A stretch of 57,819 bases of DNA from the IMG/VR virus record IMGVR_UViG_3300031965_000034, positions 1-57,819 of that record. The stretch is one strand, 5' to 3'. Position 1 is the stretch's first letter, and each line of letters opens with the position of its first letter. Below, piece after piece: positions 1,649 through 43,110 of this stretch. The position numbers and the translations under genes are program-made. The notes under the pieces are model-generated. The model was not told the DNA's origin, did not search any database, and saw only the letters and a program-made list of their open reading frames with translations. Source of the DNA: a virus. Its lineage: Duplodnaviria > Caudoviricetes.

Positions 1649-2358
1649 GCCGCCACCTCGGCCTGCCGCTCCATGAGGAGGCGCGCCCGCTCGACGAGGT
1701 CCGGCGGATAGACGGCCGCGAGCCGCTCCCACGGGTCGGTCCGCTCGACGACGCCCCACTTCCGCCACATGCCGTCGTATCCGGTGATGAGCGGCCGGTA
1801 GCGGAAGCCGATGTACTGCAGGGGGTGGACGTCGCGCCACTCCAACCGGATCGGGCGCTTGAACCCGCGGATCGTGTTGTGGTCGCAGTTCTTGTTCAGC
1901 GTCTCGGGCAAGGGCCGGAAGCCGACCGGAGCCATGAGCGAGCGGTGGAACATATGCGGCCCGGCGCCGACCTGTCCGACCTTGAGCTCCGCCAGCCGGT
2001 CCAGTTGGACGGGCGCGTACATCCCCGAGGTCCGGGTCATTCGCGGATAGGGAAGTGGCAGGAAGTAGGCCGGGTCGACGAACGAATCGGAGCCGATCGG
2101 CACGATCCACTCGGCACCGTGCCGACCGGCGTACTCCTCGCCGTCATTGAACTTCCGCGACAGGAAGATATTGTCCTGCTCGATGGTGTGCATCCCGAGA
2201 CCGCGGGCCACATCGAGGTTCTCGTCGTCCGCGATGACGACCTGATGCGCCTCGACGCCAACTCGGGCCAGCGCCTCGATGACCTGCTGCCGCTGCTCGA
2301 GACAGATGGCCGTCAACTCGAAGCGTGCGAAGGCGGGGGTAACGAACCAGACGCTCAT
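1645..2358 (-). CDS. GT2-like glycosyltransferase
   Basis: MSVWFVTPAFAR...LSRKFNDG...IGSDSFVDP; ATGA-coupled start. Confidence 0.65.
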   Translation of the reverse strand: MSVWFVTPAFARFELTAICLEQRQQVIEALARVGVEAHQVVIADDENLDVARGLGMHTIEQDNIFLSRKFNDGEEYAGRHGAEWIVPIGSDSFVDPAYFLPLPYPRMTRTSGMYAPVQLDRLAELKVGQVGAGPHMFHRSLMAPVGFRPLPETLNKNCDHNTIRGFKRPIRLEWRDVHPLQYIGFRYRPLITGYDGMWRKWGVVERTDPWERLAAVYPPDLVERARLLMERQAEVAA

Positions 2359-40162: not shown

Positions 40163-40896
40163 GCCGCGAACCTCACGTCATTCAGACAGGCTGCATGTCG
40201 TTCAGCCAGGATCTCGATCGCCTTTTCGTGGAGTGCGAAGGTCCGGGCACTTCCCTCTAGGCCCTTCATGAGCAGAGCCATCCGCTGGTGATGATCCTCG
40301 ATGCTCGCGGCACCCCATGTCGTGGCACGGCCGTCGCCGAGTGAGAACGAGGAGCCGAGCAACTCCACGGTGAGCTCCAAGCGGACGTTCTGACGGAAGT
40401 CCTCCATGAAGGCCGCGATGCGTCCCCAGCCATACCGGCGGTCGTATTCGAGCGGATCCTCTTCGGCGAGCCGTTCTCGCTCCGCCCTGGATTCTGCGTC
40501 GGCCTTCCGCTGTTCCTCGTGGCGCTGACCTTCGGGTGTCTCAGTCACCCAGCGTCGATACTCCCGCGAGTTGCGGGGAGCGAACCATGGGCTCGCCGCC
40601 CATTCCGCGCGCCTAGCCTCCCGCTCTGCCTCATTGGCGGCCTGACGTTCAGGCCACGATGCAATCGCCGCTTCCCTCTCGGCCGCCAACGTGGCGCGAT
40701 GCTCAATCTCACGCGCCCGACCTCGCCGTCGCCACTCAATCCGGTCGGCCAGCAGCGCCGCCAACAGGGCTGTGCGCTCGCTAGCGCGCAGCGTCCTCAC
40801 GGCCTTGTCAGCGACCCACTCCGGGGCATGGTCGGGGAACTCATCGTCGAAACGTGCGGCCAGCAGTCCGACGGTAAGATCAGGGCTTTCGCTCAC
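40159..40896 (-). CDS. Hypothetical protein
   Basis: 245-aa coupled ORF; coiled coil. Confidence 0.7.
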   Translation of the reverse strand: MSESPDLTVGLLAARFDDEFPDHAPEWVADKAVRTLRASERTALLAALLADRIEWRRRGRAREIEHRATLAAEREAAIASWPERQAANEAEREARRAEWAASPWFAPRNSREYRRWVTETPEGQRHEEQRKADAESRAERERLAEEDPLEYDRRYGWGRIAAFMEDFRQNVRLELTVELLGSSFSLGDGRATTWGAASIEDHHQRMALLMKGLEGSARTFALHEKAIEILAERHAACLNDVRFAA

Positions 40897-41432
40897 GCCA
40901 GCGCCTCCTGCATCCGCTCCGCGGCATCCCGCGAAAGCTCGGGGACCCGGTGCCCTCCGAGTGCCGCTTGGAGCCGGTTCGCCGCGTCGACCTTTCGATG
41001 CCAGCGGAGATACTCGGAGGCGGCCAGGGCGATCTCGGGGCTATCCGACATAAGAGCGATCGCCGTGTTGCATCGAGAGCAGAGGAGCGCCCGCGACCGG
41101 GAACTGTCGTGGTCGTGATCGATGCTCAGACGACGCACTCGACCCTTCGCGCTCTTGGAACTCTCCGGCCGGCGGCAGATGGCACAAAGCCCGCGCTGTG
41201 CTCGGAAGAGTCGCTCGTACTCATCTCTCGGCAAGAGCGTGACGGTATGGATACCAGCATCCCGGCGGCGTTGCGTGTTCAGACGCTTCAGCTCATGGGC
41301 TCGGGCCTTCTCTTCCGGGGTCCGCTTCTGGCGACGTGCCCGCTCCTGTTCCAACTGGCGAGCCTTGACGCCCGGACGGCGGCGATACTCGGCCATATAC
41401 AGCCGGCGGCGCTCAGTCTGTTCGGGCGTCAT
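40893..41432 (-). CDS. Endonuclease VII-domain protein (probably a free-standing homing endonuclease)
   Basis: QRGLCAIC...LSIDHDH...RALLCSRCN. Confidence 0.88.
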   Translation of the reverse strand: MTPEQTERRRLYMAEYRRRPGVKARQLEQERARRQKRTPEEKARAHELKRLNTQRRRDAGIHTVTLLPRDEYERLFRAQRGLCAICRRPESSKSAKGRVRRLSIDHDHDSSRSRALLCSRCNTAIALMSDSPEIALAASEYLRWHRKVDAANRLQAALGGHRVPELSRDAAERMQEALA

Positions 41433-42691
41433 CCGAGGGCCTCTTGCATCTTGTCGGCTGCTTCCCGGGCCATCTCAGGGATACGCCCGACGTAGATGTC
41501 CATCGTGACCCTCACGGTCGAGTGGCCCAAGATCCGACTCACGACCGGCAGCGGCACCCCGACCCCAAACAGGACGGTCGCGCACGAGTGCCGGAGGTCG
41601 TGCAAGCCAACCCGAGGCAGCCCCGCCGCCGCCAGGTCCGCCCGCAGTCGCGGCAGGAGGTTCGTCGCGTGGTGCGGCATCCCCCGCTCGGTCGTGAAGA
41701 CCAGCCCCTCGAGGCCAGTCGCGCCGCGGTCGGATGCCTGCTGCTCGCGCTGCGTTCGGAGGGCGTCGACGCCGAGCTGAGTCAGCGGGATCGTTCGCCG
41801 GCCCTTGGCCGTCTTCGGTGGGCGGAGCTGCCACTCGCCGTCGACCCGCTGGAGGGCGTGGCGGACGGTGATCGCGGCGGAAACACCTCGTCCACCATCG
41901 TCTGCGACAACCCGGCTTTGACCGCCTCCGACCGCATCGCTTCGTAGATCCGATCCTGTATCTCGCGTTCTAGCTCCGGCGGCCAGCGTCGCGGCATGAG
42001 CGGCATCGGTCCCTCCAAAGGTGACGTCCCCCCACGCCAGCCCCAGCGCCTCGGAGATCCGCAGCCCGGTCGTCACGAGGATCGTCCAGAGCGGCCCGTA
42101 GCGGGTGCCACGGGTGCTGTCGAGGAGGACGCGGGCCTGGGCGGCGTCGAGGATGGGGCGCTCGCGGTGGGGGAGTTTCGGTGCTTCTGCGAGAGCCGCA
42201 ACGTTTCGAGAGACAAGTCCATCTCGGACAGCATCGGCGAGTGCCCGGCGGAGAGTGGCCCGATGATGACGGCGTGTTTGTCCGTCGAGTACGGGTAGAC
42301 GTTGACGACCGTCCATACCGCCGCTTCGATGGTCCGCCTCTTGGTCCAGGAACTCACGAACGTCCCCGATTGACAAGTCGGACAACCGACGAGCACCCAA
42401 TATCGGCGCGATGTGGACGCGGATGATCGACTCGTGCTTTCGCCACGTCGCCGGAGCGAGTCGAGGACGGACATCACTCACCCACCGCTCTAGGTAGTCC
42501 CCAAGCCGGATACGGCTCGCGTCGATCGCCTCGGCGCTGAGGGCGCGCTGCATGGCGCGGAGTTCGGCGAGGGCTTCGGGCCGCGTCTTCGCCTGCCGCC
42601 GTCGGCGACGTCCGTCGGGCAGACTGATCGCCGCCACCCAGACGCCCCGCGCCTTGTGCCAGTACAGGGACCCCTCGTGGTGCGAACGCAC
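41429..42691 (-). CDS. int: Tyrosine integrase
   Basis: EGSLY arm-binding start; TGLRISE, KT, HDLRH, LGHS and Y catalytic residues all present. Confidence 0.95.
   Translation of the reverse strand: MRSHHEGSLYWHKARGVWVAAISLPDGRRRRRQAKTRPEALAELRAMQRALSAEAIDASRIRLGDYLERWVSDVRPRLAPATWRKHESIIRVHIAPILGARRLSDLSIGDVREFLDQEADHRSGGMDGRQRLPVLDGQTRRHHRATLRRALADAVRDGLVSRNVAALAEAPKLPHRERPILDAAQARVLLDSTRGTRYGPLWTILVTTGLRISEALGLAWGDVTFGGTDAAHAATLAAGARTRDTGSDLRSDAVGGGQSRVVADDGGRGVSAAITVRHALQRVDGEWQLRPPKTAKGRRTIPLTQLGVDALRTQREQQASDRGATGLEGLVFTTERGMPHHATNLLPRLRADLAAAGLPRVGLHDLRHSCATVLFGVGVPLPVVSRILGHSTVRVTMDIYVGRIPEMAREAADKMQEALG
41782..42006 (-). CDS. Candidate overprinted ORF inside int (+1 frame)
   Basis: GGAGG RBS; amphipathic LEREIQDRIYEAMRSEAVKAGLSQTMVDEVF coincides with an insertion in Int. 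Confidence 0.55.
   Translation of the reverse strand: MPLMPRRWPPELEREIQDRIYEAMRSEAVKAGLSQTMVDEVFPPRSPSATPSSGSTASGSSAHRRRPRAGERSR
42073..42477 (-). CDS. Candidate overprinted ORF inside int (+1 frame)
   Basis: GTGA-coupled to xis stop; genome-typical codons; CPTC; protein-like core. Confidence 0.55.
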   Translation of the reverse strand: MMSVLDSLRRRGESTSRSSASTSRRYWVLVGCPTCQSGTFVSSWTKRRTIEAAVWTVVNVYPYSTDKHAVIIGPLSAGHSPMLSEMDLSLETLRLSQKHRNSPTASAPSSTPPRPASSSTAPVAPATGRSGRSS

Positions 42692-42854
42692 GCCCGGTAT
42701 CGTACCCCCCGAGGTAGGCCCGGAGCGCGTCTTCGGAGAACCGCAGCGCCCGCCCGAGCCGGGCATGGGGAAGCCGGCCCGCTCGTGCCTCGGCGTACAC
42801 CGTGTCAGTCGAGACACGAAGGAACGCGGCGGCTTCGCGGGCGTTGAGCGTCAC
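42474..42854 (-). CDS. xis: Excisionase-like HTH_17 protein
   Basis: LNAREAAAFLRVSTDTVY...GRLPHARLGRALRF; GTGA-coupled to cro. Confidence 0.85.
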   Translation of the reverse strand: MTLNAREAAAFLRVSTDTVYAEARAGRLPHARLGRALRFSEDALRAYLGGYDTGRAFAPRGVPVLAQGAGRLGGGDQSARRTSPTAAGEDAARSPRRTPRHAARPQRRGDRREPYPAWGLPRAVGE

Positions 42855-43072
42855 GCCACGGCCCCATCGACCACGTCGGGGTGGAGGCGCGACAGCGCGC
42901 GGCATAGGTCGATGACTGACGCCTGCCAGTCCTCAGGTGCCCGTCGCTGGCCCTTGCTGTAGGCATAGACGGTGTTGACGGATCGCCCGGTGGCGGCGGC
43001 AATCTGGGTGAGCGTCAGGCCGCTGTCGTGAACAGCTCTGCGCCACGGGTCCATCTCGCTGCGTCTCTTCAT
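42851..43072 (-). CDS. Cro-like HTH protein
   Basis: GLTLTQIAAATGRSVNTVYAYSKG; divergent from repressor. Confidence 0.8.
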   Translation of the reverse strand: MKRRSEMDPWRRAVHDSGLTLTQIAAATGRSVNTVYAYSKGQRRAPEDWQASVIDLCRALSRLHPDVVDGAVA

Positions 43073-43080
43073 GGCACAGA

Positions 43081-43110
43081 ACAGTAACGGTACCGGCACA
43101 GGTCTGTCAA
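43081..43110 (-). promoter_or_regulatory. Leftward early promoter, probably near-leaderless cro mRNA
   Basis: TTGACA-18 nt-TACTGT, with ATG 8 nt after the -10 box. Confidence 0.7.

Follow-up and report, generated by a model that had tools for sequence, protein, structure and literature searches.

A read-through insertion in a phage tyrosine integrase gene that may hide a small out-of-frame gene

Several ways in which extra sequence can be accommodated within a protein-coding gene have been described. Rz1 within Rz of phage lambda and comS within srfA of Bacillus subtilis are embedded genes, read in a shifted frame from an internal Shine-Dalgarno (SD) sequence and start codon; both arose within existing coding sequence and are conserved together with the host gene. 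Rickettsia palindromic elements are selfish insertions that are translated in frame as surface loops of the proteins carrying them, and in cyanophage psbA an intron without any open reading frame (ORF) homes by means of the neighboring free-standing endonuclease F-CphI, a process termed collaborative homing. The ShiLan domain and the Pacc40 insertion, as reported by Arsenault, Gosselin and Gogarten (2025, PMC11855218), are HNH endonuclease genes located out of frame in read-through insertions that interrupt the DNA methylase gene of a mycobacteriophage. The subject of the present analysis is an extra segment in the tyrosine integrase gene found on the minus strand of the IMG/VR virus record IMGVR_UViG_3300031965_000034, the whole 57.8-kb stretch of which was analyzed and is referred to below as the window.

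The segment, located at positions 41873-42023, is probably, although far from certainly, a read-through insertion in which a small gene is hidden out of frame. Ribosomes that make the integrase would read it as a disordered surface loop of ~46 extra residues in the catalytic domain, leaving the enzyme whole; such a loop is suggested because the frame is open, the aligned catalytic residues are intact, and the AlphaFold2 (AF2) model agrees. Other ribosomes would start at an internal GGAGG-N5-ATG in the +1 frame and produce a 74-residue protein, in which a helical head of 42 residues, supplied by the insert, is followed by a flexible tail arising from the shifted reading of the integrase strands. 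The insert is one occupant of a slot that recurs in this integrase clade, in which a 5' "socket" (F/L-G-G-x-D in the integrase frame, with SD and ATG in the +1 frame) is kept and the cargo behind it differs completely between lineages. Since near-identical alleles occur with the insert and without it, the simplest and most likely route by which it would move is recombination within the conserved integrase sequence on either side. An accessory or selfish cargo is favored over a dedicated integrase cofactor as the role of the nested product, given the lack of relationship among the cargos.

The extra segment in the integrase loop

The integrase carries 50 residues between ...LAWGDV and ITVRHAL, reading TFGGTDAAHAATLAAGARTRDTGSDLRSDAVGGGQSRVVADDGGRGVSAA and rich in Gly, Ala, Arg, and Asp. 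The same loop comprises four residues in the nearest relatives and about seven in most relatives. Its extent was established from relatives' contigs belonging to two other soil/sediment metagenome runs, in which position 41872 is joined to 42024 (run X4) or to 42032 (run X3), so that the extra piece is 41873-42023, that is, 151 nucleotides (nt) versus 13 in the nearest insert-less allele, a net gain of 138 bases or 46 codons with no stop in the integrase frame. The X4 contig is identical to the window at 111 of 113 flanking nt (~98%), and the 13 other bases at its joint correspond to the ERDS loop of homologue P0002.

Alleles that are otherwise nearly identical differ in having or lacking the insert. 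The window and the insert-less locus L147 agree at 118 of 120 nt upstream of the insert, and the homologous proteins P0007 and P0009 are identical at 179 of 182 positions across the catalytic half, one of them with a 67-residue insert and the other without. The segment is lacking in each of the eight best homologues, P0001-P0008 (55-72% identical, 361-380 residues long). Among 216 integrase-family ORFs, comprising that of the window and those of loci fetched with their DNA, the loop has 0-4 residues in 18, 5-9 in 192, 10-14 in 2, and at least 40 in 4, namely the window, L210, L082, and L148, with L082 and L148 being one sequence drawn from two collections.

The protein matches the Pfam families Phage_integrase (PF00589; 6e-17, 62.4 bits, cut-off 27.1), with the match broken into two stretches by the insert, and Phage_int_SAM_3 (PF14659; 7e-10, 39.5 bits, cut-off 22.6), and 611 homologues with E<=0.001, the best of them 72% identical, were found among 8000 candidates scored. 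In a 20-sequence alignment, residues R214, K296, H367, R370, H393, and Y403 are invariant; we take these columns, presumably in keeping with the family pattern, to be the catalytic R...K...HxxR...H...Y. The AF2 model based on this alignment has a mean predicted local distance difference test (pLDDT) score of 77.9, with 158 residues at 90 or above and a confident core, whereas the insert scores 39-55 per 10-residue block and residues 246-270 are below 50. The invariance of the aligned catalytic residues, together with the confidently modeled core, indicates that the integrase is likely to be intact. The open frame around it covers 41429..42817 (minus strand); the most likely start, judged by alignment, is GTG 42691, which corresponds to the beginning of homologues starting with M-x-x-VR[GS]H, although ATG 42766 may be an alternative.

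These results agree well with the first-pass annotation of the window, which had claimed an insert of ~45 residues between LAWGDV and ITVRHAL, in a place where the loop is normally short, and had considered this loop to be a permissive one in a still-intact integrase. The length found (50 residues, net 46 codons) is close to the claimed one, the alignment and structure prediction that had been proposed as checks placed the insert outside the nearest relatives and in the disordered range, respectively, and the six invariant aligned residues as well as the confident core support an enzyme that tolerates it.

The nested frame, its start signal, and its recurrence

The motif GGAGG-N5-ATG is located at 42016-42004, where the ATG is formed by the last two bases of a GAT (Asp) codon together with the base that follows in the integrase frame. 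The ORF list gives the nested ORF as 41782..42018, from an upstream TTG, in agreement with the coordinates of the first-pass annotation, and the translated peptide matches the one quoted there. The reading changes character after ...VDEVF (41881), where it becomes Pro/Ser/Arg-rich over the conserved integrase strands, and it is terminated by a TGA that lies inside CCG CTG ACT (P-L-T). The same +1 tail and stop are present in L082 and in site 1 of L210, because the integrase sequence is conserved there. In a single-sequence AF2 model of the nested peptide, residues 10-30 form a helix (pLDDT ~91), residues 35-41 form a short helix, and the tail scores ~52-64. Thus, both the ribosome-binding site followed by ATG in the +1 frame, open for 74 codons, and the ending of the protein-like part together with the insert, as had been proposed before any comparison was made, are found in the DNA. 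The coordinates of all features are given in Table 1.

The DNA of inserts from three contigs provides four examples (window, L082, L210 site 1, and L210 site 2), located in two different loops. All four begin with YTKGGAGGKAMYGATG, i.e., with the same GGAGG-N5-ATG, and the ATG lies 17-19 nt into the insert in each of them. Their lengths, 150, 126, 141, and 234 nt, are all multiples of three, and none contains a stop in the integrase frame. The 3' ends of the nested ORFs differ, since only the ORF of L210 site 2 stops at the end of the insert, while those of the window, L082, and L210 site 1 run ~30-45 codons into the integrase. The +1 ORF of L210 site 2 comprises 70 codons, counted from the ATG, and ends with a separate TAG a few bases short of the point at which the integrase core continues; it was called as a gene by the gene caller of the Joint Genome Institute (P0122). 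This second filled slot, at 441-738 of L210, occupies the loop between QREWMAAK and IDGLVFT and has the same TTTGGAGGTACTGATG edge; additional residues are also found close to this position in P0011, P0013, P0025, P0048, and P0075.

At the protein level, inserts of at least 15 residues (15-110), placed at exactly the site seen in the window, are present in 37 of the 120 homologues listed. In the integrase frame these inserts are unalignable except for the first six residues, [LF]-G-[GD]-x-D-[GA], and the +1 reading of this edge is an SD followed by ATG, with GGN-GGN giving GGAGG and GAT-G giving ATG. Gly is found at position 2 in 35 of the 37, and a pair compatible with ATG, [DNHY][GAVED], is found at positions 5-6 in 22 of them, compared with 91 of 1367 (6.7%) elsewhere in the inserts; the 37 are known as protein only, and since they share ancestry, the nominal p value of this contrast is overstated. 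The position-specific conservation of the edge beside hypervariable sequence is clear all the same. The first-pass annotation had regarded the loss of the ribosome-binding site and ATG in relatives as evidence against a nested gene; all three other inserts with DNA have both.

The codons that create the signal are not common ones, with GGA accounting for 7.6% of Gly codons and GAT for 22% of Asp codons in the genes of the window, and each insert junction uses both. Motifs of the form GGAGG-N4-7-ATG occur 13 times on the two strands of the 57.8-kb window, roughly 8 or 9 of them being plausible gene starts, as judged from the ORFs behind them. In 254 kb of 212 distinct integrase ORFs, taken from stop to stop, there are 48 matches; 36 of these keep the integrase frame and mostly mark the start codons of the integrases themselves, and 12 are out of frame. 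Four of these 12 are the 5' edges of the four inserts, which exceeds what chance would give.

Few further relatives were available for comparison. A blastn search of phage DNA gave no match, a tblastn search against phages and plasmids gave identities of at most 33%, and a single-protein scan of viral contigs yielded none. Among the matches listed in scans of genome and metagenome contigs, most relatives were at or below 38% identity, and inserts were seen only in L082/L148 and L210. P0013 found no counterpart at E<=1e-45 in 401 sampled Actinomycetota genomes, with four candidates scored per genome.

Other classes of inserted element were considered as well. RNA folding of the insert is no better than that of shuffled sequences (z=-0.10), and a scan of 41300-43100 against Rfam at E<=1 returned nothing but an unrelated microRNA model at 19 bits, a chance match; these two results rule out an RNA element or an intron. 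The insert has no terminal or bounding inverted repeats, and a tblastn search with the four nested peptides against the window and roughly 230 fetched loci returned only the peptides themselves, with no further copies, which rules out a hairpin repeat resembling Rickettsia palindromic elements. Intein junctions consist of Cys or Ser at the start and of His-Asn plus a nucleophile at the end, whereas the junction residues here are T/F at the start and A followed by I at the end, and no intein domain was present in the Pfam scan, which rules out an intein as well.

The SD-like GGAGG at the 5' edge, the GGA codons near both ends of the insert, and the +1 stop at the 3' edge of L210 site 2 could also be accounted for by recoding, in which the insert would be bypassed, or read in the +1 frame by means of two programmed frameshifts, to give a mature integrase either without the loop or with a helical insert. 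We regard this as scarcely credible, since there is no stop after the candidate take-off codon, no RNA structure in the segment, and no slippery heptamer at either edge, and since the integrase frame is open in all four inserts as well as in all 37 protein-level cases, which would be needless if the segment were skipped.

Table 1. Positions of the insert, of the predicted nested ORF, and of the surrounding genes, with downstream endonuclease genes of related loci
Feature	Sequence	Positions	Strand	Remarks
Extra segment	Window	41873..42023	minus	Loop between box-I helix and first beta-strand of catalytic domain
SD-like GGAGG	Window	42012..42016	minus	Gly-Gly (GGA GGG) in integrase frame; five bases before nested ATG
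Nested +1-frame ORF, 74 codons + TGA	Window	41782..42006	minus	ATG 42006, TGA 41784-41782; wholly inside integrase gene
Head of nested ORF, 42 residues (MPLMPRRW...MVDEVF)	Window	41881..42006	minus	Encoded wholly by insert; protein-like
Tail of nested ORF	Window	41782..41880	minus	+1 reading of last bases of insert and of conserved integrase strands (ITVRH...IPLT)
Tyrosine integrase gene	Window	41429..42691	minus	Pfam PF00589 and PF14659 above cut-offs; stop TGA 41431-41429
Endonuclease VII-family gene	Window	40893..41432	minus	3' of integrase; Pfam PF02945 2e-16; PHROG endonuclease VII 3e-23
Excisionase-like HTH_17 ORF	Window	42474..42905	minus	5' of integrase gene; Pfam PF12728 1e-12
HTH gene	Window	42851-43099	minus	
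PHROG "endonuclease" family gene	L082	3697-4266		ATG overlaps integrase stop (ATGA); 3e-19
HNH_3 gene	L210	1929-2453		~0.9 kb downstream of integrase gene
HNH_3 gene	L149 (insert-less)	1741-2040		Downstream of integrase gene

Evidence for and against a coding +1 frame

The base composition of the four inserts has, in the +1 frame, the normal periodicity of a high-GC gene, with G+C contents at the three codon positions (GC1/2/3) of 0.63-0.71, 0.41-0.52, and 0.81-0.83; the respective values for the nested head of the window are 0.68, 0.41, and 0.83. With a codon model derived from 21 long ORFs of the window, the +1 frame scores higher than the integrase frame by 18.6 log units in this head and by 14-39 log units in the four inserts, a preference matched by no more than 0.7% of windows of the same length in the genes of the window. 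In the integrase frame the GC3 of the inserts is 0.41-0.53 (about 0.41 for the insert of the window), and that of ordinary in-frame inserts in the high-GC relatives L077 and L164 is 0.83 and 0.97.

The pattern of substitutions was followed in P0080 and P0098, two integrases of ~60% identity whose inserts, 53 residues long, are homologous. They differ in 71 of 183 catalytic-core columns and in 16 of 53 insert residues, a difference that is not significant (p=0.33), and on this alignment the insert appears to be at least as conserved as the core. Single-base changes in the insert, as deduced from the proteins, amount to 11.3 at position 1 of the integrase codons (the wobble position when read in +1) and to 2.0 at position 2, compared with 245 and 248 in the cores of six pairs (binomial p=0.011, Fisher p=0.012). 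This pattern points to purifying selection on the +1 protein, rather than to a loop that is either free or selected as part of the integrase. It is opposite to an insert conserved in the integrase frame and not in the +1 frame, which the first-pass annotation had named as speaking against a nested gene. Within clusters formed at 90% identity the inserts are identical, with none of 352 positions changed over nine clusters versus 166 of 3147 elsewhere, a contrast that includes P0025 and is an unfair comparison of rates, as the differences within clusters are almost all in the N-terminal half. The ORF of the window itself may be under selection.

An alternative that we consider unlikely is that of a tolerated expansion of the loop, in which captured foreign coding DNA happened to be stop-free and hydrophilic when read as integrase, while the +1 ORF would be its shadow, unexpressed or irrelevant. 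Owing to the high G+C content, the +1 frame is open along nearly all of the integrase gene, with +1 ORFs of 134 and 78 codons, and high GC1 combined with low GC3 can make a conserved stretch of integrase look +1-coding without any nested gene. The frame relation itself is also what filtering alone would give, as stops are seldom encountered when a high-GC gene is read starting at third codon positions; moreover, the peptides are orphan and mutually unrelated, and lack their own stop at site 1. A captured random fragment, however, has no need for an SD-N5-ATG start, yet this signal is present in 4/4 inserts in two loops and is spelled with the rare codons GGA and GAT. An unconstrained loop should also drift to high GC at all three codon positions, contrary to the integrase-frame GC3 given above, and the insert shared by P0080 and P0098 is as conserved as the core, with changes placed on the +1 wobble.

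Conservation of that insert might instead mean that the segment is a functional part of the integrase, such as a conserved low-complexity linker or a regulatory loop, with the +1 ORF as a by-product. Every insert keeps the frame open and has a length divisible by three, the inserts are identical within 90% clusters, and the F/L-G residues at the edge are shared, all of which would be expected of such a part. Nevertheless, this seems very improbable, as the inserts are unalignable in the integrase frame between lineages and vary in length from 19 to 110 residues, the nearest relatives manage without them, and the replacements at first positions between P0080 and P0098 are radical (W/G, R/G, P/S). 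The same edge motif is moreover present in a second, unrelated loop, and the pLDDT of the insert is low (39-55 per 10-residue block).

A number of observations weigh against the nested gene that we favor. Among the records listed as containing this sequence, none is of RNA. The compositional argument failed its control, carried out on every family member with DNA, including the insert-less L147, L149, L083, and L084, in all of which a stretch of the core-binding domain shows GC3 values of 0.35-0.65 when read as integrase, with the codon model favoring the +1 reading by 10-26 log units. Here the DNA certainly encodes integrase, whose protein sequence is conserved, and the +1 peptides agree no further than the integrase sequence dictates. 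This stretch, ...LS.LS...QT.RH.RATLRRALADA.RDGL..RNVAAL, lies at ~42150-42400 in the window (minus strand) and is the same in L147, L082, L149, L083, and L084; its low GC3 could be due to a constraint at the DNA level, to recombination, or to another overlapping feature. Because a control stretch without an evident nested gene also scores as +1-coding, the GC3 frame plot and the codon model are supporting evidence only and are not decisive for coding in the +1 frame.

The signal of selection, in turn, comes from the single pair P0080/P0098, which belongs to a lineage other than that of the window, and was derived from protein only; no homologous insert was found for comparison with that of the window. 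In P0077/P0106 the corresponding changes are 7.0 versus 6.0, and the other four pairs align poorly. The identity of inserts within clusters has little power, as only 20 of 109 variable columns are at column 180 or beyond. As to the start signal, 15 of the 37 protein-level inserts have no ATG-compatible pair at positions 5-6, the four junctions may share descent, so that 4/4 would not represent four independent events, and the integrase DNA beside the junctions is unusually conserved at third positions. Finally, the nested ORF of the window has no stop of its own at site 1 and ends ~32 codons into the integrase, which is odd for an imported complete gene.

The nested peptides are, in addition, without homologues in Pfam, PHROGs, 1.84 billion representatives, a 5.8-billion collection, and the ESM Atlas, and the four are mutually unlike in any frame (six pairwise comparisons, lowest +1-frame p=0.076), both of which also tell against a gene. 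That lowest value belongs to the window and L082, whose likeness seen by eye (...MVDEVF versus ...IVDALS) is therefore not significant. A phmmer search with the head of the window, 48 residues as searched, against the 1.84 billion representatives gave one match, P0121, a 669-residue tandem-repeat protein that gave no BLAST alignment and was rejected as a repeat artefact. The head has no Pfam or PHROG family at E<=10, and none of the four peptides exceeds the Pfam or PHROG cut-offs, the best being DUF1990 (E=0.047) and DUF6894 (E=0.15), both below cut-off; no HNH domain was detected in any of the four with these two collections. ESM Atlas scores of 0.78-0.82 are at chance level, the search with the L210 site 2 peptide returned only itself, and the 5.8-billion collection gave nothing usable. 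A search with the insert region of P0080 returned only P0080 and not P0098, possibly owing to composition filtering.

The description of the insert as a small nested gene, as made in the first-pass annotation, is accordingly retained in part. Its start signal recurs in relatives and the substitution pattern of P0080/P0098 follows the +1 frame, while translation is a prediction and composition did not withstand the control. The further suggestion that it might be a free-standing phage gene was not supported, as no nested peptide had a free-standing relative in the searches made.

Gene neighborhood and comparison with known systems

The window, with a G+C content of 67.7% and listed as 55% complete, contains genes typical of tailed phages (major capsid, large terminase, minor tail protein, and amidase), as well as those of ParB and of a PAPS-reductase-domain protein, and the host of the insert is the integrase of a temperate phage. 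The integrase gene is part of a minus-strand cluster that consists of HTH, HTH_17, integrase, and Endonuclease VII genes, and the ATG of the Endonuclease VII-family gene overlaps the integrase stop (ATGA). In the HTH_17 ORF the domain occupies residues 20-65 and is followed by ~75 stop-free codons over the 5' end of the integrase gene, in another frame. The layout of L082 is the same, with an HTH_17 ORF at 2329-2718 (8e-07) and a stop-free run over the 5' end of the integrase; there, the integrase ATG is found within the HTH_17 ORF behind GAGG, and the upstream frame reads G-G-H-N-G at this place, resembling the "socket" of the inserts. One relative's contig (run X3, depth 5.3) is without two bases at 42682 and has an additional CC behind 42698, a compensating change of frame over 16 nt, right where the integrase presumably starts within the tail of the excisionase-like ORF.

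Over 42163-42472 relatives' contigs substitute other sequence, with skips of 266-308 nt or, for example, a 244-nt skip with 202 other letters. Because of these replacements, and because the 90% clusters differ almost only in the N-terminal half, this half of the integrase in the clade looks like a mosaic exchanged by recombination.

Endonuclease genes are located just 3' of the integrase gene in 3/3 insert-bearing loci and belong to three different families (Table 1). Among insert-less loci with enough flanking sequence, one of three has such a gene downstream (L149, but not L083 or L084, in which there is none within 2 kb), with L147 being too short. This arrangement suggests that the insert and the neighboring nuclease spread together, although the association (3/3 filled versus 1/3 empty loci) is not significant. 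It leads to another explanation, namely that the insert matters as DNA, by interrupting the site of the adjacent free-standing endonuclease, so that the immune allele would spread together with the nuclease in a form of collaborative homing without splicing, while the ORF would be either a bystander or a partner of the nuclease. The presence of the insert in one of two near-identical alleles fits this explanation, and read-through homing insertions have a precedent in actinophages (PMC11855218). We nonetheless find it improbable, as the nucleases are of different families, their association with the insert falls short of significance, and the conserved SD-ATG as well as the +1 periodicity would be left unexplained.

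A broader model joins the favored nested gene to such homing. We can speculate that the integrases of this clade contain two surface-loop cargo slots with fixed SD-ATG sockets, in which unrelated mini-genes are swapped in the +1 frame, and that these spread by splicing-free collaborative homing, with the downstream endonuclease cutting empty alleles and repair copying cargo and nuclease together. In this full form the model is quite unlikely; if true, it would make the integrase gene a vehicle for hypervariable small accessory proteins in a clade of soil actinophage-like elements.

The nested gene itself, if real, would be an example of small phage proteins missed by gene callers since they lie inside an intact gene, and the trick would recur in about a third of one integrase clade, in two different loops. 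A single change of GAT to GAC would be silent for the integrase and would remove the nested start codon. If, on the other hand, the ORFs are not real, they serve as a warning that high-GC host-coding DNA can show a protein-like shifted frame together with low GC3 in the host frame.

A literature search, limited in coverage, found nothing on point concerning nested or overprinted genes in integrase genes. As in the case of Rz1/Rz and comS/srfA, a longer gene contains here, on the same strand and in a shifted frame, a short, complete ORF equipped with a separate SD and start codon, although its translation is predicted. In contrast to these genes, the head of the ORF lies in DNA that the host gene of the nearest relatives lacks and that is exchanged between alleles. 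The likeness to Rickettsia palindromic elements is that a permissive loop has taken up ~100-150 nt without loss of the frame, so that the protein gains residues; unlike those elements, the present insert has no hairpin or inverted repeat and no other copies, and it does have a start signal and the coding periodicity of another frame. With psbA and F-CphI the locus shares an interrupted conserved gene placed beside a free-standing endonuclease gene, as well as alleles with and without the interruption, but the interruption is not an intron and is retained in the protein.

The ShiLan and Pacc40 insertions (PMC11855218) resemble the present inserts in being patchy among close relatives, in lacking a stop in the host frame, in their predicted looping out, and in having no intein or intron signature. 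In both cases the ORF in the other frame begins a few bases into the insertion, and that of L210 site 2 ends in the last bases of the insertion, as it does in ShiLan. The content, however, differs, since the hidden ORFs described here are heads of 35-70 residues with no HNH or any other recognized domain, and the canonical SD and ATG stand against a GTG start and no detectable ribosome-binding site as reported for ShiLan. Further differences lie in the integrase host, in the lineage-variable cargo behind a fixed socket, in the absence of an own stop at site 1, and in the endonuclease being a separate neighbor. The case in the window thus shares the ShiLan type of architecture but fails its defining content, in that it has no HNH domain, and its hidden ORFs are far shorter. 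If the nested gene is real, it would extend hidden-gene insertions from the nucleases of a methylase to tiny non-nuclease cargos of integrases, which have an explicit Shine-Dalgarno sequence and are exchanged behind a conserved socket.

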